From: a virus
Lineage: Duplodnaviria; Heunggongvirae; Uroviricota; Caudoviricetes
Length of the DNA stretch: 64,000 nt
Virus record (IMG/VR): IMGVR_UViG_3300037010_001573
Coordinates: 1-64,000 of that record
Reading direction: 5' to 3' (one strand)
Shown here: positions 5,604 to 55,603 of the stretch, one piece after another
Layout: each line of letters starts with the position of its first letter
Position numbering within the stretch: the first letter of the stretch is position 1
Position numbers and translations under genes: made by a program
The notes under the pieces: model-generated
Database searches by the model: none
Seen by the model: the letters and a program-made list of their open reading frames with translations, nothing else
Told to the model about the DNA's origin: nothing

Positions 5604-5935
5604 TTTATTTAATTACTTTAAAGTGAATATGTTTTGGGAATGTCCCAAATACAAATTTAGTTACATCACATAACCAAACTGATTTAATACCTAAATGATA
5701 TAAACACCCGTTTGGTGGTGTTTTCATAATACGTTTTAATGTTTCATACCCATCAATGGGTTCTGTTGATAACATTATACTAACAGTTTCATTATTATTT
5801 GATAGATAATCTAATAAAGTATCAGCACCACCTACAAATGGTAGGGCTCCTTTTGGTCCTGTCCATTCTGGTAAATCTATATATCAATTATTGTCTTCTT
5901 TATTGAAATCATATTTTACCATATTATTTTTATTA

Positions 5936-5980
5936 TTTTAACCTTTTGGTAAAATTACGACTTTAGATTTTACAATCCAA
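5936..5980 (-). promoter_or_regulatory. conserved promoter-like motif (TTGGATTGTAAAATCTAAAGTCGTAATTTTACCAAAAGGTTAAAA)
   Basis: same element; ATG at 5925. Confidence 0.5.
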
Positions 5981-6428
5981 CTACTTTTTCAATTATTTTT
6001 TTAACTAAAGATATATCTGCCCTTCCATTAAATCTTTTATTAAATTCACCTAATGTTTTCCCGACCAAAGCTTGTTGATTAGGAACAACTCCAATTAAAT
6101 CGGAAACAATACCTCGAATTGATATTTCAATATTTTCTTCAGACATTGGTTTAGGTAAATATACTCGTAAAACATCAGCCTCATCGGATTCAGCTTGAGC
6201 TTGTTCAACCCTACATGCCTTTTCATATATAGACTGGGATTCTTCACGTTGTTTTATTGCTTTGATAATAATCTTCAAAACTTCAGCATCATTCGGTTCC
6301 CAATTTGGGTTAGATTTTTCAGCTTCAACTATTTTCGCTTTAACACTACTTAAAGATGCTTTTGCTATTTGGTTTTGTGTTTTCATTGCATTAATGAAAT
6401 CACTATATATTTGTTCTTTTAAAGACAT
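5970..6428 (-). CDS. hypothetical protein
   Basis: ORF track. Confidence 0.4.
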   Translation of the reverse strand: MSLKEQIYSDFINAMKTQNQIAKASLSSVKAKIVEAEKSNPNWEPNDAEVLKIIIKAIKQREESQSIYEKACRVEQAQAESDEADVLRVYLPKPMSEENIEISIRGIVSDLIGVVPNQQALVGKTLGEFNKRFNGRADISLVKKIIEKVVGL

Positions 6429-8079: not shown

Positions 8080-8112
8080 TCTTATATAAAGATAATAAAA
8101 AAGGCTCGGTAA
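8080..8112 (-). terminator. rho-independent terminator, family GGCUUGGUUUACCGAGCC plus UUUUUUAUUAUCUUU
   Basis: follows the ligase stop; the same ~40-nt element recurs at 22917, 23404, 25284 and 38039. Confidence 0.7.
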
Positions 8113-8145
8113 ACCAAGCCTTTTAAAAATTTCCTAAATATTTTA

Positions 8146-22916: not shown

Positions 22917-22949
22917 AGATAATAAAAAAGGCTCGGTAAACCAAGCCTT
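22917..22949 (-). terminator. rho-independent terminator (family copy)
   Basis: identical hairpin plus U-run after the 22961..23377 stop. Confidence 0.7.
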
Positions 22950-23403: not shown

Positions 23404-23438
23404 AGATAATAAAGAAGGCTCGGTAAACCAAGCCTTCT
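23404..23438 (-). terminator. rho-independent terminator (family copy, longer stem)
   Basis: after the 23449..24075 stop. Confidence 0.7.
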
Positions 23439-23448
23439 ATTAAATTTA

Positions 23449-24075
23449 TTAAGCAACTTTATAAACAACGTTATTTAAAGTAATGCTTTCGATAGTTTGT
23501 AAATTAACGCTTTTAACAGTTGATACTTCTTTTCTACGAACTGCTGAAATGTCTTTTACATTAATGTAACCCAATGCACTTGTACTCATATTGGAAGTGT
23601 GCTGTCCATTCATAATACGACGAGAACCGTCTTTTTTAATAAATGTGACTGTGAAGAATTTACCGTTTGAATTTTGTATAATCTCAAGAGCTTTAGTTCG
23701 TGAAATCCTACTTGTTGTGGTTGGTGCTTTTGGTGCTTTCGGTGTTTTTACAGGTAAAACCGTTGGTGTTGTAGTCATATTTCCTACATTCACGGTTTGG
23801 TTAACTTGTGTACCAACTAATGAATATGTTCTGAAGGTTCCATTATCTATATAATCAAATTTACCAATTACATTAGCATCTATCATAACTTGAGAAATTT
23901 CATTTTGTCTCCAATTTTTATTTGGGAATTGTTTTCTCAATTCATTTTTGATTTCTAACGTAGTAACTGTGTTATTAGCTACACACAAATCTTCTGCTAC
24001 TTTGAGCACTTTGTCAATTTTACTTGTTTTCATATTTTTTAACATTTTAATGATACTATTTATCATTTTAACCAA
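23449..24075 (-). CDS. hypothetical protein
   Basis: ORF track. Confidence 0.4.
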   Translation of the reverse strand: MVKMINSIIKMLKNMKTSKIDKVLKVAEDLCVANNTVTTLEIKNELRKQFPNKNWRQNEISQVMIDANVIGKFDYIDNGTFRTYSLVGTQVNQTVNVGNMTTTPTVLPVKTPKAPKAPTTTSRISRTKALEIIQNSNGKFFTVTFIKKDGSRRIMNGQHTSNMSTSALGYINVKDISAVRRKEVSTVKSVNLQTIESITLNNVVYKVA

Positions 24076-25265
24076 ATTATATATTTAATTCTACATTGTT
24101 CTTCTTTATATGCTATTATTTCCGAATTTAACAATCCATTTCCTGCTTTAACATAAGTGGAATCAAAACCTCGTTTTTGTAATTCCTGATAATTTAAAGT
24201 AAATGAATTACCTCTATACCAACCATCGTATATAAACGGATTACCAGTATGGACCTCATATACCAATAAAATTTTATCATTATCATAACCAGTATAACCT
24301 AATGATTTGGATACTACTTCTGAAAAATAATTCCCTTGTCCATAAACCTTTCCTGAAAATTGGAAATTCCCAGATGGTCTAATTTTTAATCCTTGTGTTA
24401 ATATAGATAATACAGATGAACATCTAGTCCCATGAATTAATGTTCTGGTTTGAGTATTCTTTTGTTTTTTAACCCATGCTTCAAAACTAGTGTCTTCTGT
24501 TGGTTTATTTAATTCAAATATACACTCAACACGTCTACTACCACCTATCTGATCTATTAGATATTTTAACTCGGAATTTGATTTTGTTTCAATCATTTTT
24601 CCTAATCCCAAAACATCCAACATCGTTTGTTGTTTTGGTTTTTCTTTTATATCCTTGTTTTGTTTAGAGTTTTCCTTTTCCTGTTCATACATTTGAACTT
24701 GAGAAGACATTGCATCTATATTATCTTGTTCTTTTTCTAAAGCTTTATCTAAATTTAAAACAGGAAGTAGATATGCAGACACACGTCCCATTTTTCGGGG
24801 AATGACAGTGTATAATTCAATTAGTTTTTCATTAACCGTTTTTTCATCTGTTTTATTAATGTTCTCGAAATCATCTAAAATAGCTTGAGCTTTCTTAACT
24901 TGTTCTATAGTTACACTTTTGTATGTAACAGAATAAGTATTTTTTACTAACCCATCAGTATATTTCTGCATTAATTCCAGAAAGGTATTTACCTTAGTAG
25001 AATCTAATTTAGCCAATACTGCTTCTATTGTGTCTTCTGTATCCTCTTCTACTTTTTCCGTTACTAAATGTGTTACATCTTTGTAACCCTTTTTAGTTTT
25101 TTCCCTGTAAATAGAGGCCCATTGTGACATTGATTTGGTTAATTTAGTACTTGATGAATCAACACGTCCATATTCTATATGAAGCATACCATCTTTTTCT
25201 TGCATGACGTAAAACTTATTATTGTTTTGTTCTGTCACCATTACTAATTTACAATATTGCCCCAT
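24063..25265 (-). CDS. poly(ADP-ribose) polymerase-like protein (N-terminal WGR-like domain plus PARP catalytic domain)
   Basis: catalytic region LIHGTRCSSVLSILTQGLKI...GKVYGQGNYFSE...LLVYEVHTG matches the PARP H-G-S/T, Y and E motifs; N-terminus has a WGR-like pattern. Confidence 0.6.
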   Translation of the reverse strand: MGQYCKLVMVTEQNNNKFYVMQEKDGMLHIEYGRVDSSSTKLTKSMSQWASIYREKTKKGYKDVTHLVTEKVEEDTEDTIEAVLAKLDSTKVNTFLELMQKYTDGLVKNTYSVTYKSVTIEQVKKAQAILDDFENINKTDEKTVNEKLIELYTVIPRKMGRVSAYLLPVLNLDKALEKEQDNIDAMSSQVQMYEQEKENSKQNKDIKEKPKQQTMLDVLGLGKMIETKSNSELKYLIDQIGGSRRVECIFELNKPTEDTSFEAWVKKQKNTQTRTLIHGTRCSSVLSILTQGLKIRPSGNFQFSGKVYGQGNYFSEVVSKSLGYTGYDNDKILLVYEVHTGNPFIYDGWYRGNSFTLNYQELQKRGFDSTYVKAGNGLLNSEIIAYKEEQCRIKYIIWLK

Positions 25266-25283
25266 GTTTTTACTTTTTGGTAA

Positions 25284-25316
25284 AGATAATAAAAAAGGCT
25301 CGGTAAACCAAGCCTT
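25284..25316 (-). terminator. rho-independent terminator (family copy)
   Basis: after the NadV remnant and before the PARP-like gene. Confidence 0.65.
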
Positions 25317-25329
25317 TTAAAAATATTTT

Positions 25330-25625
25330 TAAAGAGCTTCTAAAGATTTTCTGACAGCTGTTAATGTGGTTTTATTATAGAAATTACCATCCTCATATAT
25401 TACTTGTAATATACCTTGGTTTTCTTGCTCTTCATTACATTGTGTAACTACATAATATCCACCATTTGTTGTCCAAATGATACTATTTTGCTTATTCCTT
25501 TAGGAGCATACTTTGTTGAGCGTGGTATCCAATTTCCGTATAAACGAGTTATTCCAGGAGCAAGCATTCTTTTATGTCCTACTTTGTAGGCATCGGTGTA
25601 ATATAAAGCGTTTGGTTTAAATATG
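25330..25625 (-). pseudogene. N-terminal remnant of nicotinamide phosphoribosyltransferase (NadV/NAMPT-like)
   Basis: MFKPNALYYTDAYKVGHKRMLAPGITRLYGNWIPRSTKYAPKGI matches the NAMPT N-terminus (TDSYKVSH); only ~100 aa remain, split over two frames. Confidence 0.45.
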
Positions 25626-25629
25626 TTTT

Positions 25630-26361
25630 TTATTTTTTATTAATAACCATTTCATTTAAATCTTCGATATGTTTTTGGTCTCCGTTCTTAGCGTATTTTA
25701 CTTTAGCATCTAGAACATCTAGTAAAGAACTAACTTTATATTTGTGTCCTTTATATTCAACAAACTCATATTTTTGTTTAGGATCAATTCTATAGTCTAT
25801 TTTAACACCATTACATGTAAAAGTGTAATCAAAATCATTACCTGATGTTTTACCATGACCATAATCTATATGAAGAGCATCCGTTGATTCAGGAAGAATA
25901 AAATAAGATGTTATAATATCATAATCACATACTGCACCGTAGTTGTCGTTCCATCTTTCTAATCTTACACCACGTAAAAACAAAGATGTAGACCCTCCCA
26001 CAATAAAATTAGGGTATTTTGTTTGTATCTCACGTAAAAGATCTAATTTAAAATAAGATTCCATTTGGATTTCTTTTATTTCGGATTTTGTTAGTTCTCT
26101 AAGTATTTTAAAAGATGTTGTTATGCTTTTTTTACTATCTTCATTAAAAGCACCTAATATTTCAATTTCACAAAATCGATTATAACCATCATCTGGATAG
26201 AAATCGAACACATTTACTAAATCACTACAATAATGAAAACCATCACTTGAACCTAATCGAAGATGATCTAAATCGTTATTCTTACTGTATGTTTCCTCTA
26301 TTTGGAATTTATCACCACGACACTCTAGGTTTTTATTAAACCCCTTATACCCTATTTTCAT
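25630..26361 (-). CDS. hypothetical protein
   Basis: ORF track. Confidence 0.4.
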   Translation of the reverse strand: MKIGYKGFNKNLECRGDKFQIEETYSKNNDLDHLRLGSSDGFHYCSDLVNVFDFYPDDGYNRFCEIEILGAFNEDSKKSITTSFKILRELTKSEIKEIQMESYFKLDLLREIQTKYPNFIVGGSTSLFLRGVRLERWNDNYGAVCDYDIITSYFILPESTDALHIDYGHGKTSGNDFDYTFTCNGVKIDYRIDPKQKYEFVEYKGHKYKVSSLLDVLDAKVKYAKNGDQKHIEDLNEMVINKK

Positions 26362-26744
26362 AATTTTTATTTTTATTTTTATTTTATATTATAGAAATTT
26401 TAAAGCACGAACCCATGTTTTTAAACTAAGATAATGTCCTAAACATATAATATTATCAGAAACATAACCAGCACTACCACCGTTTTCTAACCCATCATAA
26501 TATTTTGTATCTTTAGGGATCATAAACAAATAATTACCATATGGTTCCTTTTTCTTCCAAGAATGATATCCTTCTTCAATTTCACAACATCCTGGTTTTA
26601 ATTCTATTGTTTTTTCTTGAGGTTGACCTATTTTATAAGTGTACCCTTGATGTTGAGATACAACCCCCAAAATATAAATACTTCCAACAGAATATATTTT
26701 TGTCTGCTACTTTTTCTTTTGAAATGTTAGTTAAACACATATTA

Positions 26745-27266
26745 TTAAATTTTATAAATTACTACAGTTACATCACAATCTGTTAATTCAGTTTGTATAA
26801 TTTTTTTAATTATATCCCAGTTACCTCCAGCTAACCCGGCCCCTATTTGTGGTAAACCAATATGTTTTCCCTTAAAAACTTTATTTATTTTCCTCATACA
26901 TAATGTTAAAGCTTCATAATCTATAGGTTTAAAAGAACCAGTAGCATGGTTTCTCCCAAAATTATATTGAGTGTAAGCATTAACGACAGTTAATTCAGGT
27001 TCATTTTTGTTATTTTTAAAATCATCTAGGTTCCATATTGTATTTTCTCCTAAAACCAAAGTTTCGTAATCAATATTCCCTAGTTTATTAATATTAGAAC
27101 CCCACGTTTCCATTTCAAACTTATTAGCTCCGAAAGCTCGAGCCATTTGAGGAGCAATCCCAACACCCATAACAGAATGACAGTTCACACCGTGCGCTAT
27201 AACATCGAATTTACCTTGTTTTGCTAAAGCGATTAAATCCCCATCAAATTCTCTGTATGTTCCCAT
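26745..27266 (-). CDS. macro domain protein (ADP-ribose binding/hydrolase)
   Basis: FDVIAHGVNCHSVMGVGIAPQMARAFG and LPQIGAGLAGGNW macro-domain motifs. Confidence 0.65.
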   Translation of the reverse strand: MGTYREFDGDLIALAKQGKFDVIAHGVNCHSVMGVGIAPQMARAFGANKFEMETWGSNINKLGNIDYETLVLGENTIWNLDDFKNNKNEPELTVVNAYTQYNFGRNHATGSFKPIDYEALTLCMRKINKVFKGKHIGLPQIGAGLAGGNWDIIKKIIQTELTDCDVTVVIYKI

Positions 27267-27269
27267 AAC

Positions 27270-27990
27270 CTTAAATTTTTATATATTTTTTCGATTTGTT
27301 TTTATATTATCTAATATTGTTTTGTAATTATATAAACTACCATATTTAACATTTAATTTTTTTGATATTTTATTAAGATTAATTCCACTACAATATAATT
27401 CAATTACTTCATCTTTTATATCTTCAAAAAAATTAAATCTGTTATTATCTGATTTAATATTATCCCATTTTCGTTGTAATAATGGAATATTTAAACCTAT
27501 AAAAATATTTTTTAATTTTAATATATTTGAATGTTTAGTTAATGAAAACAGAGCATAACCACGATTATTAATAATAACTCTAGATATAATATTATAATTA
27601 TCTTCTAATAATGTTTCTTGTTTTTTTTCTTAAATCATTTAAAACTTGGTGTATATAATCACTATTATCTATTACAGTGCATTTTTTAATCAAAGCAGGT
27701 GATACATCTGAATGAGGGTCAAATATAAAATACCTATCTACTTCTAACCCATTTAAAATTTGACATATTGATTGTAATGAAAAACATTCACCCAAAGCGA
27801 AATCCCGATCGGCTTGTTGGTACGGAACATATGGTAATACTACTTGAACTAACCCACGATATCCATCTTTTCGAATAGTACCAACTGCTAATATCAATAA
27901 TATTAAATCATTTGCATTATTAATTCGACTAATAATTCTAATTCCAGATAATGAATACTTCAGGATAATGTATTTTAAAATGAATTTCAC
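27270..27990 (-). CDS. ribose-phosphate pyrophosphokinase (Prs)-like protein, apparently frameshifted at an A8 run (~27615)
   Basis: GLVQVVLPYVPYQQADRD...VDRYFIFDPHSDV matches Prs IVIPYYGYARQDR...ATRVIALDLHA; removing one A extends the ORF by ~110 aa to ~27270. Confidence 0.45.
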
Positions 27991-28117
27991 ATCCTGGAAA
28001 TATAAAAAGCATCATATTCTTTATTTTTTGTAATTCCGTTTCTTAAATCTAATATTACCATTTGTTTAAATTTCTCTTTTATAAAGATATGAATAAAATT
28101 TCTATAATCCTAATTTC

Positions 28118-28831
28118 TTATAAAAAACTCATATAGTTTGTTTGTTTATTCCAATCGAATGTATATGGTTTCTGTGTATATTCATACCTTTCATCTAACA
28201 CAGATGCATTGAAATAATGAGTTCCATCCTTAAATTCATAACCGTAACCGCTATGAATATGACCACATATGTGAATTTTTGGTTTGATTATTTTTACCCT
28301 TTCAGCCAACATACCACACCCCAAAGCGTCCCACGGTCTCCCAACTACCGTATCTAAGGTTCCATAAGTAGGACCGTGTGTTATAAGAATGTCGGTATTA
28401 TCAGGAATAGCTAACCATTTACTTGCTATTTCATGTCCATTTTTTGGTAAATTAAATGCCCAATTGTAAAATTCGGGTTGCCACGGTGAACCATAAACAC
28501 GGATATTTTCTTCAGGGGAATCCTCATTTATACCATCAAAATATAAATCCAAATATGAATCTTGAAGATAATCTATATTTTTATAAGAAGAATATATTTC
28601 TTTGGCTAACTCGGGTTTGTTTTCAAATAATCTATCATGATTCCCGGCTATGAATATTTTTATATCATAATTATCCAATTTATCAAACCAATCACAAAAG
28701 TTAGATATATCTTTATGATTATATCCTGAATTCATTAGGTCACCAGCATGTATTAAAATATTACCTCCCGGTAAATCTGGAGTGATTAAATCATGTCTAG
28801 TATGGGTATCTGATATGACAGTTATTCTCAT
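28118..28831 (-). CDS. calcineurin-like metallophosphoesterase
   Basis: ITVISDTHTRH...GDL...GNHD motifs. Confidence 0.7.
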   Translation of the reverse strand: MRITVISDTHTRHDLITPDLPGGNILIHAGDLMNSGYNHKDISNFCDWFDKLDNYDIKIFIAGNHDRLFENKPELAKEIYSSYKNIDYLQDSYLDLYFDGINEDSPEENIRVYGSPWQPEFYNWAFNLPKNGHEIASKWLAIPDNTDILITHGPTYGTLDTVVGRPWDALGCGMLAERVKIIKPKIHICGHIHSGYGYEFKDGTHYFNASVLDERYEYTQKPYTFDWNKQTNYMSFL

Positions 28832-42239: not shown

Positions 42240-42313
42240 AGCTTCTTGACAGGATCGAACTGTCTCTATTCCTGGTTACAAATCAGGTGCACCACCATTC
42301 GTGCGTAAGAAGC
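42240..42313 (-). tRNA. tRNA-Thr (TGT)
   Basis: acceptor GCTTCTT/AAGAAGC, anticodon loop TTTGTAA, T-arm GACAGTTCGATCCTGTC. Confidence 0.7.
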
Positions 42314-42393
42314 ATATAGATTACAGCCGGTTTTCATATCCGTTCTGTAGAAACCTAATTCTACTGCTTTGCTATAAGCTAACTGTAATTTTG

Positions 42394-42466
42394 TACCCCA
42401 GGAGGGATTCGAACCCTCAAAATCTTGATCCTAAGTCAAGCGCGTATACCGTTCCACCACCGGGGT
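42394..42466 (-). tRNA. tRNA-Leu (TAG)-like with short variable loop
   Basis: anticodon stem CTTGA/TCAAG, loop CTTAGGA, T-arm GAGGGTTCGAATCCCTC. Confidence 0.4.
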
Positions 42467-42809
42467 ATTTAATTAATATAATTAATAGGAATTGGTTTAC
42501 CTATTATATCCAATTTTCAAAAGCATCCTAAGGTACTTACTCCAAGTTAAATAAGGAAACATGTTCTTGTTTCTAAATCCGATCCCGCTCTTTATTAATC
42601 AAGTGTAGCACTACATTACGACCGCTTAGTCTATAACGGGAAAAATGATACGCCTGCTAGTGACAATTATATTAATTTTATTTTATCCAATATATCAATG
42701 AACTCATTTTTCTTTCTTTTATAAAGATAATAATAATCTTTTAGGTAACCAAATCTTTTTTAATTGATTTTACAAATAAATATACCTTTTAACATTTTTA
42801 TATTTTTGA

Positions 42810-42879
42810 AGCTTGTGTAAGAATCGAACTTACTCTATTGGGGTTGCAATCCAACCGGCCTCCAAGACCAAACAAGCCA
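42810..42879 (-). tRNA. tRNA, anticodon unresolved (possibly TGC)
   Basis: acceptor GGCTTGT/ACAAGCT, T-arm GTAAGTTCGATTCTTAC; 70 nt. Confidence 0.35.
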
Positions 42880-43267
42880 TATCTAAGAGTGTATTCGTCC
42901 ATTTCTACTACCGAGCCAGTTTCAGCTAGCTCAGGTGGGAGTCGAACCCATATTCTCTCTTATATTTTCACCTAGCCTGACCTTCCAGACAGTACGTGTC
43001 GTCGATCGTGCGTTACGTAGTAGGTGTTTTATTTTACCATTTCCTGTAATCCTTTAACAACTTCCTTATTAAATTCTACTGCAAAGTCTCTTTCTACTAT
43101 GTTTATAAGTGCTTGTTGAGCATCTAACTTACCTTCACTAGTAGCCATTTCAATACAATCATCATCTGTTTTTTCTCCCCAAAACAACATATGTTTTAGT
43201 AAATCGTTTCCGTCTATATTAATTTTCATATCTTAATTTCTTATACTTAAATATACGAACTTTATTT

Positions 43268-43957
43268 CTAATATCCAAATATTTTATTAGATTTTTTTAA
43301 ATTATCTTTTTTCCATAGAGGTTGATAATTACTATAATGATTTAGCCTTATTATATCTTCCTCAGTTTGAGCTGAGGAGATTGGCATTTTATGATCCAAT
43401 TCCCATTGACCGTAGTTATGAATAGTCATACCTTCTTGAAAGAGGTTCTGAATATGTTCAGTGAATTCTAACAAAATACATCCTAATATTTCTTCAGTTC
43501 CTATACTTTTCCTATAAGTACCGTTGCAGCTTCTTTTAAATGAACCTCTTATTAAACTTCTAGTATTACATATAAGTTTATAAATTGGATCTACCTCTTT
43601 CCTACTTTTATGATATTGGTTATAGTATTCAGGATTTCTTTCAACCCATTTACTTTTCTTTTCTCTAGGCTTTTTAATAACCTCTTTTTTAGGTCTAGGA
43701 TGAGTTTTATAATATTCAATATGGTAGGCTTTTACTTGTTCTTTATTTTGTTGATACCTATTTTTATCATACTCTTTTTGCCTGTCCCTATTAGCATCTC
43801 TATAATTTTCTCCATATTTTTGTAGAGACTCTTTATTGTCTTCTTTCCATTTTGCAGTTTCTATTTTTCTACAAGCTCTACAGGTATAGTCATAGTTATT
43901 AAATACAGATTTTGATATATTAATTCCTACTTCTAACTCTACTTTACACTTTATACA
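43268..43957 (-). pseudogene. HNH endonuclease with an in-frame TAA at codon 3 and no other start
   Basis: ATG AAA TAA then an open frame CIKCKVELE...YTCRAC (zinc ribbon) ... WELDHKMPIS...NYQPLW...N..K (HNH) with no further stops. Confidence 0.5.
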
Positions 43958-44103
43958 TTATTTCATATTAAAATAAAAGGAGAAATTAAAGGTAACACAT
44001 GGTACGTGTTAAGCTCTAAAATCTCCTATAATGCTTTTATTGAACATTACCATTGTTCATTTAATATAAATATCACAAAATATAGGAAACCTTAATATAT
44101 TCT

Positions 44104-44610
44104 TTAAAAGAATAGGAATTTTTCCCACTCTATAGGTACATAGTTTAAGGTTTTTAAGAGCATCAAGTAGTGAGGTCTTTTTGGTTCTACTATTTCTTTA
44201 CCATATTCCTCAAGTGTTAAATCTGCTTTTTGTGAATTGCAACTTCTACAAGCTGTTACCAAATTATCCCATGTATCTTTTCCTCCTTTTGATTGAGGTA
44301 TAACATGATCTAATGTTAGAAATTTTTGATTACTACTTCCACAATAAACACATTCAAAATTATCACGTCTGTATACGTTTTCTCTTGTTAGAGGAACTTT
44401 TTGAATATTTTGTTTTACATATTTAAAAACTCTAATAATAGAAGGTTTAAATATTTGTAATTCAGGATTTACCAAACCAAACGTTTCGGGGTGATCTGCT
44501 ACAACCTCAGCATTGCCTTTATATGAAATCACGAATGCTCTTTCAGTACTGATGATGCTCCTCGCCATAAAGCTAGAATCCACTACTAATGTTTTCTGAT
44601 ATTTACCCAT
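44104..44610 (-). CDS. HNH endonuclease
   Basis: CVYCGSSNQ...LTLDHVIPQSKGGKDTWDNLVTACRSCNSQK. Confidence 0.7.
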   Translation of the reverse strand: MGKYQKTLVVDSSFMARSIISTERAFVISYKGNAEVVADHPETFGLVNPELQIFKPSIIRVFKYVKQNIQKVPLTRENVYRRDNFECVYCGSSNQKFLTLDHVIPQSKGGKDTWDNLVTACRSCNSQKADLTLEEYGKEIVEPKRPHYLMLLKTLNYVPIEWEKFLFF

Positions 44611-44614
44611 GATA

Positions 44615-45010
44615 ACTTATTTTAAATGAAACCATTTATTTTTTATGTTGAAAACAATCCTTATAAAACTCAGGAATGTTTTTCTTTAACCAACTCATAG
44701 CAGCATATAAAGTTAAACCTAAATGTTTTCCTAATTTAACCCCCCAACCACTAGAACCAAAATCTATGTTTGACTCTTTTATATCTTGTATTCTTTTTTC
44801 AAAAATCTCTTTATGAGAGGTTTTATACCTAGGTGATTTTGGTTCAATTTGAGGTAAATTATAAAACGAATCTAAATCATTTACTTTAATAAGTTTGTGA
44901 ACCCTTTTATAGTTTCCTCCAGAATTTGATAGATTTAAATTTATTAATACTTGATTTATATTAATACAATTTTTTAATTGTTCTAGTATTTCATCATCTG
45001 TTATTTGTTT
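44615..45010 (-). pseudogene. remnant of the 46957-type homing endonuclease lacking the HNH core
   Basis: translation LNLSNSGGNYKRVHKLIKVNDLDSFY...NIDFGSSGWGVKLGKHLGL fuses the family N- and C-domains with no HNH between them. Confidence 0.4.
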
Positions 45011-45068
45011 TTTTATTATTATATTTTTCTAAATATACGAACTTCTAGTTTTATTAGTAGTTTTAATT

Positions 45069-45142
45069 GTAGTCTTAGAGAGACTCGAACTCCCACATCT
45101 CTTGATCCGTATTCAAGTGTTTTTCCAATTAAACTATAAGAC
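45069..45142 (-). tRNA. tRNA-Arg (ACG)
   Basis: acceptor GGTCTTA/TAAGACT, D-stem GTTT/AAAC, anticodon stem CTTGA/TCAAG with loop ATACGGA. Confidence 0.65.
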
Positions 45143-45147
45143 CCATT

Positions 45148-45252
45148 AAAATTAAAGGCAGGATTCGAACCTGCAAGGTATAACCACTAAAACGTGGAGA
45201 TGGAGGTTAATTCCTCTTTTACAATACCAACCTGTGAGTGTTTACCAATTCC
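45148..45252 (-). tRNA. tRNA-like element with paired ends ATTAAAG/CTTTAAT, too long (105 nt), unresolved
   Basis: T-arm GCAGGTTCGAATCCTGC; contains AGTGGT motifs. Confidence 0.25.
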
Positions 45253-45256
45253 ACCA

Positions 45257-45336
45257 CTTTAATTTTGTATCCCTGACAGGAGTCGAACCTGCAAGCCTAA
45301 GCATTTGGGCTTAAACCAAACGTGTTTTCCATTTCA
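45257..45336 (-). tRNA. tRNA-Leu (TAA), type II
   Basis: acceptor ATCCCTG/CAGGGAT, anticodon stem TTTGG/CCAAA with loop TTTAAGC, extended variable arm. Confidence 0.55.
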
Positions 45337-45432
45337 CCACAGGGATGTTTAAGGTGAGAAACCTTTATGTTGTGATAATTTCAACTATTATCCTTCATAC
45401 TTCTTCCTTTCTCAAGGGAACAACACATTTGG

Positions 45433-45505
45433 GTGTAAGACGGGGATCGAACCCGCAATCGCTTGGACCACAACCAAGTGCTTTACCATTCAGCTACGAA
45501 CACCA
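45433..45505 (-). tRNA. tRNA-His (GTG) with G-1:C73
   Basis: anticodon stem CTTGG/CCAAG with loop TTGTGGT; 8-bp acceptor with extra 5' G. Confidence 0.55.
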
Positions 45506-45562
45506 TGTAACGATTTATAAGGTCAAATCGTAAACCAGGACCTTCTCCCTTGGGAGATGCAG

Positions 45563-45631
45563 TACCGAGTGTTGGATTCGAACCAACCTAAGGGCGGATA
45601 TGAGCCATCCTTGATCCCAAGCTCCCTCGAT
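45563..45631 (-). tRNA. tRNA-like with CAT anticodon and extended anticodon stem
   Basis: loop CTCATAT, T-arm GTTGGTTCGAATCCAAC. Confidence 0.3.
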
Positions 45632-45759
45632 AGTATGATAAGAACCCGGAAAACTTATCGGTGTGCTTATGATTTTAAAGTGTCTTACCACAGGGCTCCG
45701 AACGCACATTCTACTCTTGTATTGCTTAGATACATTATGAGGACGGGGAACAGGTTTTG

Positions 45760-45844
45760 TAGAGAGAGGAGGTATCGAACCCCATGCGAATAAACGCACA
45801 CACTGTTTAGCAAACAGGTCTAACACCTAGTTAGTACACTCTCC
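45760..45844 (-). tRNA. tRNA-Ser (GCT), type II
   Basis: D-stem CTAA/TTAG, anticodon loop TTGCTAA, long variable arm, T-loop TTCGATA. Confidence 0.55.
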
Positions 45845-45944
45845 ATATAAATTAAATTATGAAGTTGGACTTTACAGCAAGTTCGACATATTAGCCGGAC
45901 CATCATGCCAGCGTTCTTATCCTTAGTCTACTTAATTTAATTTG

Positions 45945-46019
45945 TACTCATAGCTGGATTTGAACCAGCGACTTTCATCTTATCAGGATGCTTATCTACC
46001 GGGCTGATATATATGAGTA
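45945..46019 (-). tRNA. tRNA-Ile (GAT)
   Basis: acceptor ACTCATA/TATGAGT, D-stem TATC/GATA, anticodon loop CTGATAA. Confidence 0.7.
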
Positions 46020-46085
46020 TTTATTACTAAAGCAGGTAGTCCTCCTGCTAATATTTTATTACGGTCGTCATTTCCTGACACCAGG

Positions 46086-46691
46086 TCACTTTTTATTTAT
46101 TTTAGTAATTTCTTTTAATCTGAAATGTTCTTCTCTATGACAATTAGCACATAATAATAAACATTTGTCTGCTTCTAACTTCATCCTATCAAATGAATAG
46201 GAGTGGGAACTTATATTGAAATCTTTTTTAGTTGGATCTTTATGATGAAATTCTAAAGCATTATTACATTTGCTGTATCCACAAAATTCACATTTCCCTC
46301 CTTTATAACCTATCAAAATTTCTTTCTTTTCCTTCTTCCAATTTATTACAGCTAAACTTTTATTTCTACTATCATTTATTTTGGTAAAATTTCCATATAA
46401 ACCTTCTTTTTCTAATAAATTCCTTAATGTCCATTTACTGAATTCATTAAATTTTAGAGAGGTTAAATGAAGGTTTCCATTATTTGTTTTATAGAAATCT
46501 AATATATTAGCAACGATATTATCAGTAAAATCTCTTTTATATTTATTTTGTAAAATCTCTTCAGTATTTTTTAAATGATAACCTACTGTTCCTTTCCCTA
46601 AATTTAGAGATCTACATATTTCAGGAATATTCATTCCACTTTTTTTCAAATATCTAACTTTTTGTTTTGTTGATAATTCTTTACATTCCAT
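46086..46691 (-). CDS. HNH endonuclease
   Basis: CEFCGY...LEFHHKDPTKK...LLCANCH. Confidence 0.65.
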   Translation of the reverse strand: MECKELSTKQKVRYLKKSGMNIPEICRSLNLGKGTVGYHLKNTEEILQNKYKRDFTDNIVANILDFYKTNNGNLHLTSLKFNEFSKWTLRNLLEKEGLYGNFTKINDSRNKSLAVINWKKEKKEILIGYKGGKCEFCGYSKCNNALEFHHKDPTKKDFNISSHSYSFDRMKLEADKCLLLCANCHREEHFRLKEITKINKK

Positions 46692-46748
46692 AATATTATT
46701 TATATATAAATATATCGAACTATCCTAAAAATTAAGGAAAAGATTAAG

Positions 46749-46820
46749 CTGCTCCCCAGAGAATCGAACTCTGATAATTTGATTAACAGTCAAACGTAAT
46801 AGCCTTTATACGAGAGAGCA
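46749..46820 (-). tRNA. tRNA-Asn (GTT)
   Basis: acceptor TGCTCTC/GGGAGCA, anticodon stem TTTGA/TCAAA with loop CTGTTAA. Confidence 0.65.
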
Positions 46821-46956
46821 ATTTTATTTGTCTTTCCAAATTGTCAACCAGAGCTACAGTGAACGTCTTCTATGTATTATTTTCATAGTTGGGTTTCTCG
46901 TGGGGACTCTCGGTTACGATCCGAGCTCTTTGGTACTTCCCGCTCTACCATTGGAG

Positions 46957-47634
46957 CTATAGGTACATTTTGTTTTGTGTTAATAGATGAGGATAATTTT
47001 GTTTAACTAATTTTAAACTCCATTGAGGTGATTTATTTAGTAATTTAGCAACTTTAACCCCCCATTTACCTTTTGAAAAATCTATATTTGATTTTAATAT
47101 ATTTTCTACATTATCAAATTCAATTTTTTCTTTTATTTGTTTTTCTATTTTTTTTCTTTTATTTAAACTATTTCCTCTATTTCTTCCAGAAAATGTATTA
47201 GTTTGTGAATGACAATTAGGACAAATAATTCTTAAATTATATATATTATTATTTAAACTATTTCCATCAATATGATCTAATTGTAAATTTATTAATTTCC
47301 CATTCCATTCATTTTTTAACCCACAACATTCACAAGAATCTTTTTTAATATTTTCTTTAATAAGTATATTTTTTATATGAGTATTACTCATTATTTTCTT
47401 ATTATTTAATTTAAAAATATCTTCAAATAAATATTTTCGTCCTTGTGATGGGTTCAATCGTTTACAAAATTCAGATCTTGATATAAAATGAGAAGTATCT
47501 AAATTATGTTTTATAATTTCTCTTTTTAATTTATTGTAATTACCACCACTTGTGTTAAAACCTAAATATTGTAAAACTCCTGCTTTTGATTCACTATTTT
47601 TTATAGCAAATTCTAATGTTTTTTTGTCCCACAT
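46957..47634 (-). CDS. HNH homing endonuclease (intact member of the family with NxSGGNY N-domain and NIDFSKGKWG C-domain)
   Basis: CECCGL...LDHIDGNSLNN...ICPNCH. Confidence 0.65.
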   Translation of the reverse strand: MWDKKTLEFAIKNSESKAGVLQYLGFNTSGGNYNKLKREIIKHNLDTSHFISRSEFCKRLNPSQGRKYLFEDIFKLNNKKIMSNTHIKNILIKENIKKDSCECCGLKNEWNGKLINLQLDHIDGNSLNNNIYNLRIICPNCHSQTNTFSGRNRGNSLNKRKKIEKQIKEKIEFDNVENILKSNIDFSKGKWGVKVAKLLNKSPQWSLKLVKQNYPHLLTQNKMYL

Positions 47635-47714
47635 AATATTATATTTATAATAAATACATGGAAATGAACTAAAAATGTAACTTCCTTAAAAAGAAATACT
47701 ATCACGTTCATTTG

Positions 47715-47788
47715 TGGAAACGGTAGGATTTGAACCTACGACCCTTTCCTCTTCAGGGAACCACTCTACCAAACTGAGTTACGAATCC
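47715..47788 (-). tRNA. tRNA-Phe (GAA)
   Basis: D-arm ACTC/GAGT, anticodon loop CTGAAGA, T-arm GTAGGTTCAAATCCTAC. Confidence 0.6.
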
Positions 47789-47832
47789 AATTTCTAGATT
47801 TTAATTATTCCCTGATCTAGAACAGGCCTATG

Positions 47833-48111
47833 TTATTTTCTAGAGTATTTTTTAACATCTTCTTTAGTACGCCCAAACCAATGTTTTGGTTCTTCATCAC
47901 CCCAATAAGGACGAGATTCTTGAATTAACCACCACCAATCACAATAATCATAATCATTGCGTATTTCTTTTGGGTGTTTAAAGTTAAAATCTTCATTCCA
48001 AAATGTACAACTCTTAATCTGTTGTTTCCATATTCTACGAATAGGACTCCAATACTCTCTTGTTGTCATTCCCTTATCTTTAATATAAGGTTTTTTTCTA
48101 CTTTTTGACAT
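47833..48111 (-). CDS. hypothetical protein
   Basis: ORF track. Confidence 0.4.
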   Translation of the reverse strand: MSKSRKKPYIKDKGMTTREYWSPIRRIWKQQIKSCTFWNEDFNFKHPKEIRNDYDYCDWWWLIQESRPYWGDEEPKHWFGRTKEDVKKYSRK

Positions 48112-48172
48112 TTTTCTAAGTTATATAATATTACTTAGAAGACCGAATGTTTCATACTAACAAATTTATTTG

Positions 48173-48253
48173 TGGGTAACAGTGGACTCGAACCACTCCC
48201 GTGAGGACCTGTTTTACAGACAGGCTGCCGTATCCGAACGACTTTTGCGACCC
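48173..48253 (-). tRNA. tRNA-Tyr (GTA), type II
   Basis: anticodon stem CCTGT/ACAGG with loop CTGTAAA, variable hairpin CTCACGGGAG. Confidence 0.55.
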
Positions 48254-48294
48254 AATTACACTTCCTTCTTGGAGTATAGTGTGAACTCATCTTG

Positions 48295-48365
48295 TACCTC
48301 GTAGTGGAATCGAACCACTGCCAATTGCATGTAAAACAATTACGCTTCCATTACGCCAACGAGGT
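48295..48365 (-). tRNA. tRNA-Val (TAC)
   Basis: acceptor ACCTCGT/ACGAGGT, anticodon loop TTTACAT. Confidence 0.65.
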
Positions 48366-48416
48366 ATGACGGTATCGGTATTTTTTAGTAGGTCCTATAC
48401 CATGTAACTACTATTG

Positions 48417-48487
48417 TACCCCTCTCAGGTAATGATCCTGATTCCCGATATTAAAAGTATCGTGCTTCACCTTAAAGCTTGAAGGGC
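48417..48487 (-). tRNA. tRNA-Lys (TTT) with non-canonical T-loop ATCATTA
   Basis: D-stem GCTT/AAGC, anticodon stem CGATA/TATCG with loop CTTTTAA. Confidence 0.55.
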
Positions 48488-48541
48488 AAAATCTAATTCT
48501 ACGCTCGACGTTCTTGGCCTCTATGAATTAGTAACAGTCTT

Positions 48542-48616
48542 TGGTCGGGTAGACAAGAGTTGCACTTGCCTCCTCTCGCGTCCAAGGCGAGCTTCTCACT
48601 CCGAGAATACTACCCG
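48542..48616 (-). tRNA. tRNA-Pro (TGG) with genomically encoded CCA and T-loop TGCAACT
   Basis: acceptor CGGGTAG/CTACCCG, D-stem TTCT/AGAA, anticodon stem CTCGC/GCGAG with loop CTTGGAC. Confidence 0.65.
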
Positions 48617-48624
48617 TTTAAATA

Positions 48625-49069
48625 TTCCTTTAATTCTATATTTTTATTTCTTTCTAAAAAATGAAAATCTCTATGACAATTAGAACATAATAAAATACAT
48701 TTACTGGCTTCATTATATGCTTTTTTTTATTGCATTTTCCCCGAATCCACTATAACTTAAAATATCTCCTATTATTGCTTCTTTTTCATTTTTATCTTTA
48801 TGGTGAAAATCTAACAAATGTTCTCTACTTTCAGAACATTTTTTACATTTACCCCCTAATGATAATCTAATTTCTGATATTATCGTTTTTATTTTTTCGT
48901 TTTTATTTTTATTTCCTTCTTTCCATATTGAAGGGTTTTCTGTGATCCATTTCTTATCACTTACTTTTTTACATTTTTTACAATATTTTTGCATCCCATC
49001 AGGTTGAGATTTGTTTTTTGTAAATTCATATAAATTCTTTTCTATTTTACATTTGGCACATTTTTTCAT
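48625..49069 (-). CDS. small HNH endonuclease, C-terminus restored by removing one A from an A8 run (~48722-48729)
   Basis: LDFHHKDKNEK... then, after correction, KKAYNEASKCILLCSNCHRDFH. Confidence 0.45.
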
Positions 49070-49121
49070 AATATATGTTTATTACAAATATGTGTCTTAT
49101 CTAGAGACTCGAAATTATTTG

Positions 49122-49193
49122 TTACCCCTAATGGAATCGAACCAATCCCGCATGGACCAAAACCATGTGTACTAACCAATATACGAAGGGGCA
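49122..49193 (-). tRNA. tRNA-Gln (TTG)
   Basis: anticodon stem CATGG/CCATG with loop TTTTGGT, T-loop TTCGATT. Confidence 0.5.
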
Positions 49194-50815: not shown

Positions 50816-51966
50816 TTACTTTTTTAATTCTGATTCAATTTTATCAACTAAAAACCACAAATCATCAACGTCATGTAATATAATATCTTTCCCATTAATA
50901 TCTAAAATAGGATTAATAGAACCATCCGGATTTATCCTATCATATAAATAAAATAAAATTAATTCTGTTGATTCAACACTAAAATGTAAATGAAAAAGAC
51001 TATCTATTATTCTGTAAAAAGATTCATCATATTTCGCTGTATTAAAACCATAATCTAGTTCTAACATAACACCTCGATGTATTATGTGTTCTAATAAATT
51101 TATTGTTGTTACAAAAATATTTTTTTGAATATCTTCTTTAGTCTTTTTTTTATGTTTTAGACTACTATTCGTCTTTAATATTAAGTTTATTTGTTTTTGT
51201 AACTTTTCTATATGATCTTGTTGATCCATAACTTTCTATCGATTTGATTATTTCTTGAATAACAATACATGTTTCGTATTTTTCTTGTCCCACATAATAA
51301 GATTCAGCTGCTTCCAATGCTGTTTTCCAATTTTCTTTAGATAAAGAAAGAATATTACCTGTAAGATTTAATTCTACAATATCTGCTGTTTTTTTACGAG
51401 CTCGTTGTGCTTCTTTAATACCTAATATCAAATTCATAAAGATCATGTTTTGTATCTGAGGATTATCAGGTATTTTATTAAAATCAGATTCTTGATTGAC
51501 AATTATAGATAAATTCGGTATATTTTTTCTATCCATGTTATATTTCAGGAGGTGTATTATTCTGATTAGGATTTTGTGTTCCTCCTTCTAAAATAGATTT
51601 TATTAATAATTTAATATTACTTAATCTAATTAAAAAACCAATTACATTTTCATAAGGGACATCTAAATCAACATCAACACTCATCATATGGGGTGTTAAA
51701 CCAGCATTTAATTTTGTCTTTAATTTTTGTGTTAATTCTTCTTTTTGTGTTATTGTATATCCTTTAGGCAATACAAATTGTACTTTAACTCCTTTTTTAG
51801 TTGGGTTAGGATTAACATCTACTTTTAGAAGAGGGGTATTTGGGTTACTCATTTGATTATCCTGAGATTGAGCAACATCGTTTTGTTGTATGTTGTCATT
51901 ATGGTTCTCATCAGCTTCACACAGCAACATTAATTCTTCTATTATACTTAATTTATTTTTACTCAT
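50816..51966 (-). CDS. three hypothetical genes (50816..51229, 51165..51536, 51538..51966)
   Basis: ORF track; the first two overlap by 65 nt. Confidence 0.35.
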
Positions 51967-53113
51967 TATTTATTTTAGATATAAATATTAACTCATTTTG
52001 GTATTCTGTTAGTGCATTTATGGTAATTTTGAAAATATCAACGGTAAATGTACCAATTTCTCCACTTTCTTTAATAATATTCGGTAACTGAGTAATTATA
52101 TTAAAAGAATCTGAGGAAGCCAAACTTACATCGAATTCTACTATTATATCATTTTCTATTAAAGGGTCATTATAACCTATATTAAATATACGTTTATTTA
52201 AATCAAAATCAGTATATTTCTGTTCATGATCTATGTAATGAGATGTTATTACTTTCATATCATCATCAATGTATATTCTATCACACCATGGCTCCAAAGA
52301 AGCCAAAGCAATTGAATTACATTTTTTGACAACAAACGCTATATTATATTTAACATCACATGATTTACTCCCCCATTTGCGAAAAAAATTTCGATTTGAA
52401 TGAAGTTCTATTTGTTGTGTTTTCGATTGATATTCTTCTGAAAATCTAGATGTTTTGCTAACAAAATGGTAACAAATAGCATCTAAAGAAGTAAATAAAT
52501 TTAAACCATATAATTTAAAACGTTTTATTAAATCATCATCTTCACAAAACATCGGGTTAAATAGACTATCTAAACCACCTATTTCTATTAATTTTGCTTT
52601 AGGGGAACACATAAAAAAAGTAACACCAGGTTCGATTTTATCTTTATTTATTTGACATTCATTAAATGAAAACTCCCTAAATTTAATTTTATCAAAACTA
52701 TCTAAATCTGTACCAAAATCACGTATAATTTTACCAGGGCGTTCATGTCCCGAAAATATAGGAGGTTCAACTGTTGTATATGAAACAATATTGTTAACTC
52801 CCATATGTTTTTCTATATTTTCAATGAAACCTGGAGATAGAATGATATCGTTATGGAGATATATAACATATTCTTTTGAAGATAATTCAGTAGCTTTATT
52901 GAATGTATCTGAAAATGTTTTATTTTCATTTGAGTAAAAATATTTTAAATTTTTATCATTTAAAGAATCTAACCATTCGTGGGTTCCGTCATTAGAACCA
53001 TAACTAACAAAACATATCTCTATTTCAGGATATAATTCTCTAGTTGTGTTATAAAAACTTTTATTATATTCTAAATTATTTTTTAAACCTACTAAAAGTG
53101 ATATATTATTCAT
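51959..53113 (-). CDS. glycosyltransferase family 2-like (N-terminal GT-A domain) with C-terminal extension
   Basis: YGSNDGT...YLHNDI motifs. Confidence 0.5.
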   Translation of the reverse strand: MNNISLLVGLKNNLEYNKSFYNTTRELYPEIEICFVSYGSNDGTHEWLDSLNDKNLKYFYSNENKTFSDTFNKATELSSKEYVIYLHNDIILSPGFIENIEKHMGVNNIVSYTTVEPPIFSGHERPGKIIRDFGTDLDSFDKIKFREFSFNECQINKDKIEPGVTFFMCSPKAKLIEIGGLDSLFNPMFCEDDDLIKRFKLYGLNLFTSLDAICYHFVSKTSRFSEEYQSKTQQIELHSNRNFFRKWGSKSCDVKYNIAFVVKKCNSIALASLEPWCDRIYIDDDMKVITSHYIDHEQKYTDFDLNKRIFNIGYNDPLIENDIIVEFDVSLASSDSFNIITQLPNIIKESGEIGTFTVDIFKITINALTEYQNELIFISKINNE

Positions 53114-53969
53114 TTATTAAAATTTTATTATATAAACTATAATGTTGTTTCGCAACAAAGTTTCGTTTAAAGCGTTCTATTTTAGGTGGGTTTTTTAACT
53201 GTATGTCTAATATATCACCATAAGCATTTACATAATATATATAACTAGGAATACCACACATCCATCCTTCTATTGTTGTTCTTCCTCCAATACCTACTGT
53301 AAAATCAGCGTTTTTTAAATATTCTTCTGTATTATAACATTGATCATTGACTTGAATAAGATCATGTATAAAATCGCATTTACTTCGTGAAATAATCGTG
53401 AGTTTTATATTATCTTTAATACATTCTCCTATAATATGTTTTATCATGGGTAAACGCAAAGAATCATTAATTTCACCTATCAAAACCCCATTTATATTGT
53501 TTCTATGTGTTTGGTATTTTTTAAAACGAGTATCATCAATTGGGTTATAAAACAAAGAAATATTTTTAGTTTTTATATTATGTTGGTTTTTTAGACAACG
53601 GTATATATCAGGTTGGACAGCTATGTAATGTTTTATAGAATCATGTTTGATTACTTCTTCACTACGTAAAACTGAGTGTATAATGGATATTTTTGGTATA
53701 TCCTTAAAACGATTGCATAAAAAGACAGTTGGGTCCGGTTGAGATCCTATTATTAAATCAAAATCATCAGGTAAATTTAACATATTTGTGATTTTTATAC
53801 CCTGTTCTTGTAGATTTTGATATAAAAAAAAAGTTAAATCGGGTTCAGTATATGTAGCAAATATAATGTTTAAGTCTTTAAATTGAGAAAGCCCCATAAG
53901 TAATTCATAATGGTACAACTCACTACCACCCAAACCATTCATATTTAAACAATATACCAATATTTTCAT
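53106..53969 (-). CDS. putative glycosyltransferase (GT-B-like)
   Basis: operon context and NMNGLGGSELYHYEL N-terminus; weak. Confidence 0.4.
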   Translation of the reverse strand: MKILVYCLNMNGLGGSELYHYELLMGLSQFKDLNIIFATYTEPDLTFFLYQNLQEQGIKITNMLNLPDDFDLIIGSQPDPTVFLCNRFKDIPKISIIHSVLRSEEVIKHDSIKHYIAVQPDIYRCLKNQHNIKTKNISLFYNPIDDTRFKKYQTHRNNINGVLIGEINDSLRLPMIKHIIGECIKDNIKLTIISRSKCDFIHDLIQVNDQCYNTEEYLKNADFTVGIGGRTTIEGWMCGIPSYIYYVNAYGDILDIQLKNPPKIERFKRNFVAKQHYSLYNKILINE

Positions 53970-54493: not shown

Positions 54494-54495
54494 AA

Positions 54496-55116: not shown

Positions 55117-55119
55117 TTT

Positions 55120-55551: not shown

Positions 55552-55603
55552 TTTTATCTTATTTTATTAAATATAATAAATTTTTCTTATATTACCAAAA
55601 AAA

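Follow-up and report, generated by a model that had tools for sequence, protein, structure and literature searches.

Does a phage that carries recognisable pieces of a nicotinamide adenine dinucleotide (NAD+) reconstitution pathway still possess the pathway itself? This question is raised by a locus in a 64,000-nucleotide (nt) stretch of phage DNA (Caudoviricetes; IMG/VR record IMGVR_UViG_3300037010_001573, positions 1 to 64,000; hereafter the window), in which a sequence-only reading, made without database searches, had noticed four clustered genes on one strand, namely a gene resembling phosphoribosyl pyrophosphate (PRPP) synthetase (Prs), a macro-domain gene, a truncated NadV-like gene and a gene for a WGR-PARP-like protein. 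All four are present on the minus strand, which carries every gene of the locus, with details that we correct below. Very probably, the region is a decayed operon of the NARP1-AP type that lies beside an intact and separately transcribed PARP gene. The Prs-like and NAMPT-like genes had been taken for inactivated remnants of NAD reconstitution; this stands, and can be sharpened to Adps and Namat, not Prs and NadV.

The phage is a large tailed phage of 28% GC with a probable NAD+/ADP-ribose (ADPR) counter-defence island, and our view is of 64 kb of its genome. GC content is 26–34% per 2-kb bin and mostly ~28%, all open reading frames (ORFs) of ≥150 amino acids (aa) lie on the minus strand except for one plus-strand ORF nested in a minus-strand ORF, and 20 tRNA genes are found at 41–49 kb. 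Megablast of the 5.5-kb region of the finding against 50,697 phage records returned zero nucleotide-level matches, so protein searches were needed, and among cultured phages the closest by protein are phi4:1 and phi17:2 of Cellulophaga (PARP 35% and macro protein 48% identical).

An intact relative points to Adps and Namat

As a reference we used L004 (extended locus L019), a 173-kb IMG/VR contig whose PARP is 86% identical to that of the window. Comparison with an intact locus in a related phage had been proposed as a check, and L004 provides it, with an uninterrupted locus in the order metallophosphoesterase, Adps, macro, NADAR, 131-aa ORF, Nuc_deoxyri_tr2, Namat, terminator and PARP. Blocks shared with the window are ~70–80% identical at the nucleotide level and the phages are mosaic.

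Using the L004 Namat as a query, the SPbetaL1 Namat structures 9W5X and 9W5W (PMC12774641) were matched with E=2e-96, compared with 1e-35 to 1e-41 for true NAMPTs. In the alignment the catalytic R306 is kept as R (VRPDSGDP), while the position of SPbetaL1 R40 is occupied by K38 and then Y39 in the L004 orthologue. Selectivity of Namat for ADPR-pyrophosphate (ADPR-PP) is given by a clamp of an SCL residue and the SCH aromatics F392/Y396 (PMC12774641); these aromatics are F/F in L004 (GSFTYQFNTRDT), and the L004 protein has the Nampt-like core together with both parts of the clamp. Likewise, the L004 Adps matches that of Athena, a Vibrio phage in the same genus as the tested phage Gary, with 33% identity (116 bits, E=3e-35) and is 31–32% identical to the Adps of Gary and SPbetaL1, with solved Prs enzymes scoring just 35–69 bits. 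The two L004 genes share one operon with four genes in between, and 97% of Adps-clade genes are known to have Namat in their immediate vicinity (Osterman et al., bioRxiv 10.1101/2024.02.11.579819). Judged from these alignments and this context, the L004 pair is Adps-like plus Namat-like, and very probably NARP1.

Both core genes are pseudogenes in the window

The Adps remnant begins at ATG 28061, ~70 nt beyond the range given in the sequence-only reading, and three-frame translation places its pieces in three frames from 28061 to 27598, with tblastn likewise returning three high-scoring segment pairs (HSPs) in three frames. Against L004 there are three indels: an extra T in a T5 run (28004–28008), a loss of 5 nt between 27959 and 27958, and an extra A in an A8 run (27621–27628). 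The frameshift that had been noticed at the A8 run is therefore real, but it is accompanied by the two other indels and by loss of the catalytic half, with homology to L004 Adps stopping at 27582 and the C-terminal phosphoribosyltransferase (PRTase)-type half (~140 aa) gone. Aligned as protein with the Adps of SPbetaL1 and Gary, the window sequence lacks the IIDDIxxGGxTF region.

The remnant runs into a foreign replacement segment that holds a 100-codon open frame, without a start codon, in the ancestral Adps frame; 0 of 20,000 shuffles were likewise open. Its sole Pfam match was HTH_SB at 0.002, below the cut-off, with a weak helix-turn-helix (HTH)-like stretch ELYCSGINLNKISKKLNV, and searches gave no PHROG match, no paralogue in the window or the loci, and no phage tblastn match. 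The segment is probably the 3' remnant of another gene, perhaps the last part of a mobile gene that has since been lost, while viewing it as what is left of a homing endonuclease would be speculative.

Damage to Namat is of another kind. Where L004 has its ATG start codon the window has ATA (25622–25624), and an internal deletion of ~1.3 kb (~445 codons) has its junction at 25465/25466, with a change of frame across it. The N-terminal SCL region alone (..PRSTKYAPKG..) is kept, whereas SCH and the core are deleted. The earlier description of this gene as an N-terminal remnant of ~100 aa was right as to truncation but missed that its second part consists of C-terminal codons. An intact allele of the window Namat was sought in three ways: IMG/VR held 0 exact matches to a 34-mer, a metagenome scan with the L004 Namat gave relatives ≤68% identical and nothing closer, and the fused remnant, used as a protein query, retrieved five short N-terminal fragments of other Namats, none near-identical. 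A 1.76-kb contig from JGI 3300036715 (L003) starts at window position 25459, 7 nt from the deletion junction. It may break there by chance, or a co-existing allele with different, perhaps intact, upstream sequence may have made the assembly graph branch.

In total, at least six independent lesions account for the loss of Adps and Namat, and the homologue of the 131-aa ORF is frameshifted, so neither core gene is intact; with both core enzymes destroyed the pathway cannot rebuild NAD+. No second copy of Adps or Namat was detected in the window using tblastn, and a Pfam scan of 76 window ORFs, for which 25 of the 26 families were displayed, showed no NMNAT, Nudix, NadR, sirtuin, NAD synthase or further NAD gene.

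The lesions recur in other assemblies and are recent

Further contigs were recovered through exact-protein look-ups, both in Logan assemblies (SRR11727740, SRR11723145 and SRR11727985) and in JGI samples (3300035182 and 3300036715), although these three SRA runs and two JGI samples may partly be the same samples under two assembly pipelines. All three Adps indels and the insert are, where covered, identical in four other contigs, and the Namat junction is identical in two (assemblies of SRR11727740 and SRR11723145). Their recurrence, where covered, in five other datasets shows that the lesions are not errors of sequencing. None of the datasets examined showed any form but the decayed one. Of the 20 ORFs shared with L019, three are broken, all in the NARP1 operon, and the other 17 are intact.

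We also compared ratios of non-synonymous to synonymous substitution (dN/dS) against L004. The fragments gave 0.07–0.25 overall (Adps codons ~37–150, 0.14; Namat N-terminal piece, 0.10; Namat C-terminal piece, 0.13), and the intact genes gave 0.08–0.16 (metallophosphoesterase, macro and PARP) and 0.26 (208-aa gene). As dS is saturated and the divergence mostly accrued under selection, inactivation is recent relative to the split of the two phages. The fragments thus still show a signature of purifying selection, which indicates that the decay is recent.

The macro protein probably belongs with the pathway

Although the Pfam Macro match of the macro protein is below threshold (18.3 bits against a cut-off of 22), it matches the solved macro domains BT1257 (1e-8) and SCO6735 (4e-5), with TARG1 at E=0.02 and yeast Poa1p weak (E=0.05–0.3), and falls into PHROG 335, 'phosphatase' (1.7e-43). 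The profile searches suggested earlier therefore support PARP and WGR (see below) above the Pfam cut-offs, and Macro below its cut-off but with the backing of structures and PHROG. Over its entire length the protein aligns with Gary KNV71_gp137 (30% identity, E=1e-16), the experimentally characterised, Poa1p-like ADPR-1''-phosphate phosphatase Adpp of NARP1-AP (bioRxiv 10.64898/2026.01.28.702374), and both nucleotide-binding loops are invariant between the two (H..NC...MG.GIAP and GLP.IG.G.AGG). It is 78% identical to its L004 counterpart (dN/dS 0.13), and in both phages the gene has Adps on one side and Namat on the other, as remnants in the window and as intact genes in L004; the gene order in Thalassavirus phages is Adps, a 158-aa protein and Namat. 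An Adpp homologue is thus encoded within the NARP1 operon, and by homology the macro protein is a member of the Adpp family (ADPR-1''-phosphate phosphatase) of NARP1-AP.

Members of this family also occur in other settings. Escherichia phage ESCO5 (L005 3142–4456) has a 38% identical macro 'phosphatase' directly after an 'orotate phosphoribosyltransferase' gene, and Phapecoctavirus phages have a macro homologue with that neighbour and no Namat nearby. With more than 2,600 phage records, the Adpp-type macro family is far more widespread than NARP1.

On this evidence the ancestral layout would have been a single transcription unit with a NARP1-AP-type operon. Going by homology, Adps would convert ADP-ribose and ATP to ADPR-PP, from which, with nicotinamide, Namat would form NAD+, while Adpp would turn ADPR-1''-phosphate, an aRES-type defence product, into ADPR that feeds the pathway. 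Decay of the operon could reflect selection that had relaxed or a price paid for NARP1 in the host that the phage now has.

PARP forms a transcription unit of its own

Pfam detects both PARP (1e-18) and WGR (6.9e-6; 26.5 bits against a cut-off of 22) in the PARP ORF. Its best PDB match is PARP3, with whose helical domain residues 139–243 align, and the catalytic triad falls on H in LIHGT, Y in GNYFS and E in NSEIIAY; no Pfam PARP_reg match was reported for this ORF. The WGR N-terminus and the H-G-T...Y...E signature noted from the sequence are both borne out by Pfam and the PARP3 alignment, and the protein has the H-Y-E catalytic fold preceded by WGR and a helical region. It is well conserved with L004 (dN/dS 0.08), 35% identical to the annotated PARP of phi4:1 and 22–33% identical to other phage PARPs. 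From its domains, it is presumably a DNA-activated, NAD+-consuming ADP-ribosyltransferase.

The 208-aa gene next to PARP adjoins it in L004 too (67–73% identity) and matches only PHROGs without assigned function; because it overlaps the PARP stop codon and lies between two copies of a terminator, it is probably co-transcribed with PARP. The 22-nt core of the terminator hairpin, AAGGCTTGGTTTACCGAGCCTT, has five exact copies in the window, all on the minus strand, with 0 expected by chance, and L004 has a hairpin of different sequence at the same position (read by eye). Logan contigs L008 and L009 end inside the copy at ~25300, so the repeat probably also breaks assemblies. Placed between Namat and PARP, the terminator makes PARP and the 208-aa gene a unit of their own and leaves the macro gene in the NARP1 unit. 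A sigma-70 promoter scan of the window was at background (43 found, 41.5 expected) and was not used. The proposal that PARP and macro form an ADP-ribosylation writer/eraser pair is therefore not supported in that form, since the macro gene is in the NARP1 operon, is homologous to Adpp and is separated from PARP by this terminator. Coordinates of these features are collected in Table 1.

Table 1. Features of the locus in the window and gene content of the intact locus in the related phage L004.
Sequence	Feature	Position	Strand	Length	Remarks
Window	Calcineurin-like metallophosphoesterase	28118..28831	minus		Intact; Pfam Metallophos 7.9e-15
Window	Adps pseudogene	27582..28061	minus		Codons 1 to ~158 only, in three frames; DNA alignment to L004 Adps
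Window	Foreign replacement segment	27279..27581	minus	300 nt + stop codon	16.7% GC
Window	Macro-domain protein, Adpp family (by homology)	26745..27266	minus	173 aa	Intact
Window	Pseudogene of 131-aa ORF	26389..26740	minus		ATG 26740; frameshift in T4G5 run 26664–26672
Window	DUF7666-domain protein	25630..26361	minus	243 aa	Intact; Pfam DUF7666 4.4e-20 (N-terminal)
Window	Namat pseudogene	25329..25624	minus		Codons 1–55 fused to ~501–545 in another frame
Window	Intrinsic-terminator hairpin	25293..25318	minus		11-bp stem + T tract; between Namat remnant and PARP
Window	PARP-like ADP-ribosyltransferase	24063..25265	minus	400 aa	Intact; WGR + helical + catalytic
Window	208-aa protein	23449..24075	minus	208 aa	From ORF list; overlaps PARP stop
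Window	Terminator, near-identical copy	23413–23438	minus		After 208-aa gene
Window	Hairpin core copies	8101–8122, 22928–22949, 23415–23436, 25295–25316, 38049–38070	minus		Intergenic, terminator-like
L004	Metallophosphoesterase			238 aa	
L004	Prs-like (Adps)			298 aa	
L004	Macro			180 aa	
L004	NADAR			157 aa	Pfam 8.7e-49
L004	ORF without assigned function			131 aa	
L004	Nuc_deoxyri_tr2	5834–6298		154 aa	Pfam 2.3e-33
L004	NAMPT-like (Namat)			545 aa	

Weighing of other explanations

Several points weigh against a decayed NARP1-AP-type operon. Adps was assigned from similarity and gene context and not from a phylogeny against bacterial Prs, and the reason given for the decay is pure inference. 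With 64 kb of the genome in view, another NAD pathway could lie elsewhere. That the macro gene survived could be a sign that it chiefly serves another purpose here than feeding NARP1. In addition, the lineage of the window may never have had NADAR and Nuc_deoxyri_tr2, as the phages are mosaic and share blocks of limited nucleotide identity.

Could the frameshifts and the deletion be sequencing or assembly artefacts, with the genes really intact? Two of the three Adps indels and the frameshift of the 131-aa ORF do lie in homopolymer runs, and the contig that begins beside the Namat junction is a possible assembly-graph branch, but a 5-nt loss, a change of ATG to ATA, a 1.3-kb deletion and a 300-nt replacement are not homopolymer errors, and together with the identity of four other contigs at the Adps indels and two at the Namat junction, and 17 other intact shared genes, this makes an artefact so improbable that we set it aside. 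It is also very unlikely that the ancestral pair was an ordinary PRPP synthetase with a nicotinamide phosphoribosyltransferase, serving nicotinamide mononucleotide (NMN) salvage in the manner of NARP2. Pfam and PHROG do name the L004 proteins Pribosyltran / ribose-phosphate pyrophosphokinase and NAPRTase / nicotinamide phosphoribosyltransferase, and Namat keeps residual PRPP-dependent NMN synthesis in vitro (PMC12774641). However, solved Namat is matched far better than any NAMPT and the aromatic clamp specific to Namat is present, NMNAT, which NARP2 needs, is absent both from the Pfam families displayed for the window ORFs and from the L004 ORFs scanned (part of that locus), and an Adps-macro-Namat arrangement fits NARP1-AP.

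A further alternative takes PARP (writer) and macro (eraser) to be the core of the locus, with macro stripping ADP-ribose from PARP targets or from PARP itself and the NARP1 remnants as incidental neighbours. Phage phi4:1 has a PARP and a 48% identical macro protein in a genome without Adps, Namat, NADAR or Ndt, but there the two genes are 17 kb apart. We compared 16 further viral contigs with a PARP gene: five have a macro homologue no more than 10 kb from PARP (six of 17 when L019/L004 is counted), four of them without NARP1, and two have Adps plus Namat within that distance; writer and eraser are thus neither co-transcribed nor consistently adjacent, and the linkage of PARP to NARP1 and macro is loose and not that of an operon. 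Of the genes between Adps and Namat that are shared with L004, macro alone has stayed intact in the window, although with such recent decay its retention may just reflect lack of time. Its sequence also resembles de-ADP-ribosylating macro domains of the TARG1/SCO6735 type, but it is a full-length homologue of a biochemically defined ADPR-1''-phosphate phosphatase, and it is not of the PARG type, to which the known eraser of bacterial PARP products belongs (PMC8120803). As macro sits between Adps and Namat in both phages with a terminator between it and PARP, we consider the writer/eraser cycle unlikely, and the weaker reading of the macro gene. Less likely again, in our estimation, is that the NARP1 operon of this clade is a hub that collects ADPR-processing feeders or anti-ADP-ribosylation enzymes (NADAR, the Nuc_deoxyri_tr2-like protein and the 131-aa ORF may be members) together with a bifunctional macro protein that also cycles with PARP, which would explain why macro alone survived NARP1 decay.

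Other genes of the operon

The metallophosphoesterase gene is directly upstream of Adps in both the window and L004 (69% aa identity, dN/dS 0.16). We considered whether it corresponds to the phosphoesterase near NARP1 in Gary and rejected this, as the two have only superfamily motifs in common. For the homologue of the 131-aa ORF, tblastn gave two HSPs in different frames and three-frame translation agrees; the gene caller reports a 93-aa ORF starting with TTG, called identically in other assemblies, and this lesion had been overlooked in the sequence-only reading. The DUF7666 gene occupies the slot held by Nuc_deoxyri_tr2 in L004; its product belongs to PHROG 33731, without assigned function, and has a 35% identical homologue in phi4:1 gp159. 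No trace of NADAR or Nuc_deoxyri_tr2 was detected in the window.

In at least five of 17 metagenomic loci of the L004 Namat subclade (the unrelated loci L036, L038, L043, L047 and L049), a Nuc_deoxyri_tr2-like gene (PF15891) 45–62% identical to the L004 copy lies beside Adps and/or Namat, and NADAR lies beside Adps/Namat in L038 and L004. These two genes are candidate NARP1 accessory genes, and our literature search did not find NARP1 together with a deoxyribosyltransferase or PF15891.

Elsewhere in the window

Just downstream, in the direction of transcription, of the cluster of 20 tRNA genes (41064–49193) is a gene for a 513-aa TROVE (Ro60-like) protein (38341–39882, minus strand, Pfam 9.9e-13). 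An Rfam scan of the window found tRNAs only, with no Y-RNA family at threshold, and two extra weak tRNA-like matches without an ARAGORN call (41368–41435 and 45150–45263, the latter 114 nt). A protein with a cREC_REC domain (cyclic-phosphate processing receiver; 33053–33457, minus strand) is conserved in both phages, and in L004 (994–1404 and 1672–2259 for the pair) it is accompanied by a HAD_SAK_2 domain protein. Domains of the cREC_REC and HAD_SAK_2 types are associated with RNA-repair systems. The window ORFs also include PolyA_pol, ATP-dependent DNA ligase, YqeY, an HNH endonuclease, two intein-splicing matches and a Cpn60 match. A run of glycosyltransferase genes on the minus strand (51959–58257) comprises a GT2 gene (51959–53113) and GT1-type genes (55604–56905 and 56902–58257), and a hexapeptide-repeat transferase is encoded elsewhere in the window; together these may be a module for DNA or surface-glycan modification.

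Meaning and comparison with known systems

The window offers a clean natural case of an anti-defence pathway being discarded, with the NARP1 core hit repeatedly amid neighbours under purifying selection, which implies that in its present host this phage can do without rebuilding NAD+ or pays a cost for it. An annotation built on domains would count the phage as NARP1-positive, and wrongly so. The window and the intact L004 locus form a ready comparison for the contributions of the accessory genes (macro, NADAR and the Nuc_deoxyri_tr2-like gene) and of PARP.

The kind of system is already described, and the window is a degenerate member of NARP1-AP. Core NARP1 is that of Bacillus phage SPbetaL1 and E. 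coli phages Bas63 and Fado, and the NARP1-AP of Vibrio phage Gary and Thalassavirus has the same three families in the same order (Adps, macro phosphatase and Namat) on one strand. The likeness extends to residues, as the Namat clamp is kept in L004 and the macro motifs are kept. However, Adps and Namat are pseudogenes in the window and the pathway is non-functional, L004 has three more genes between Adps and Namat (NADAR, the 131-aa ORF and Nuc_deoxyri_tr2), the window macro protein has an extra insertion of ~20–25 aa relative to its homologues in Gary, Athena and ESCO5, and the operon here adjoins a PARP gene.

For PARP itself, the same succession of WGR, helical region and ADP-ribosyltransferase domain with H-Y-E is found in the PARPs of Herpetosiphon aurantiacus and Clostridioides difficile CD160 and in eukaryotic PARP2/PARP3 (PMC8120803), although unlike the bacterial WGR-PARPs that of the window is phage-encoded, with no PARG gene seen nearby. 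Accessory genes inside a NARP1 operon also occur in the RyDEP-extended NARP1 of mycobacteriophage DyoEdafos (bioRxiv 10.64898/2026.05.28.727677). The accessory genes of DyoEdafos and L004 could funnel other ADPR-derived molecules into the pathway; the inserted genes differ, however, with no RyR-domain protein here and with NADAR, a Nuc_deoxyri_tr2-like protein and the 131-aa ORF as the inserts of L004.

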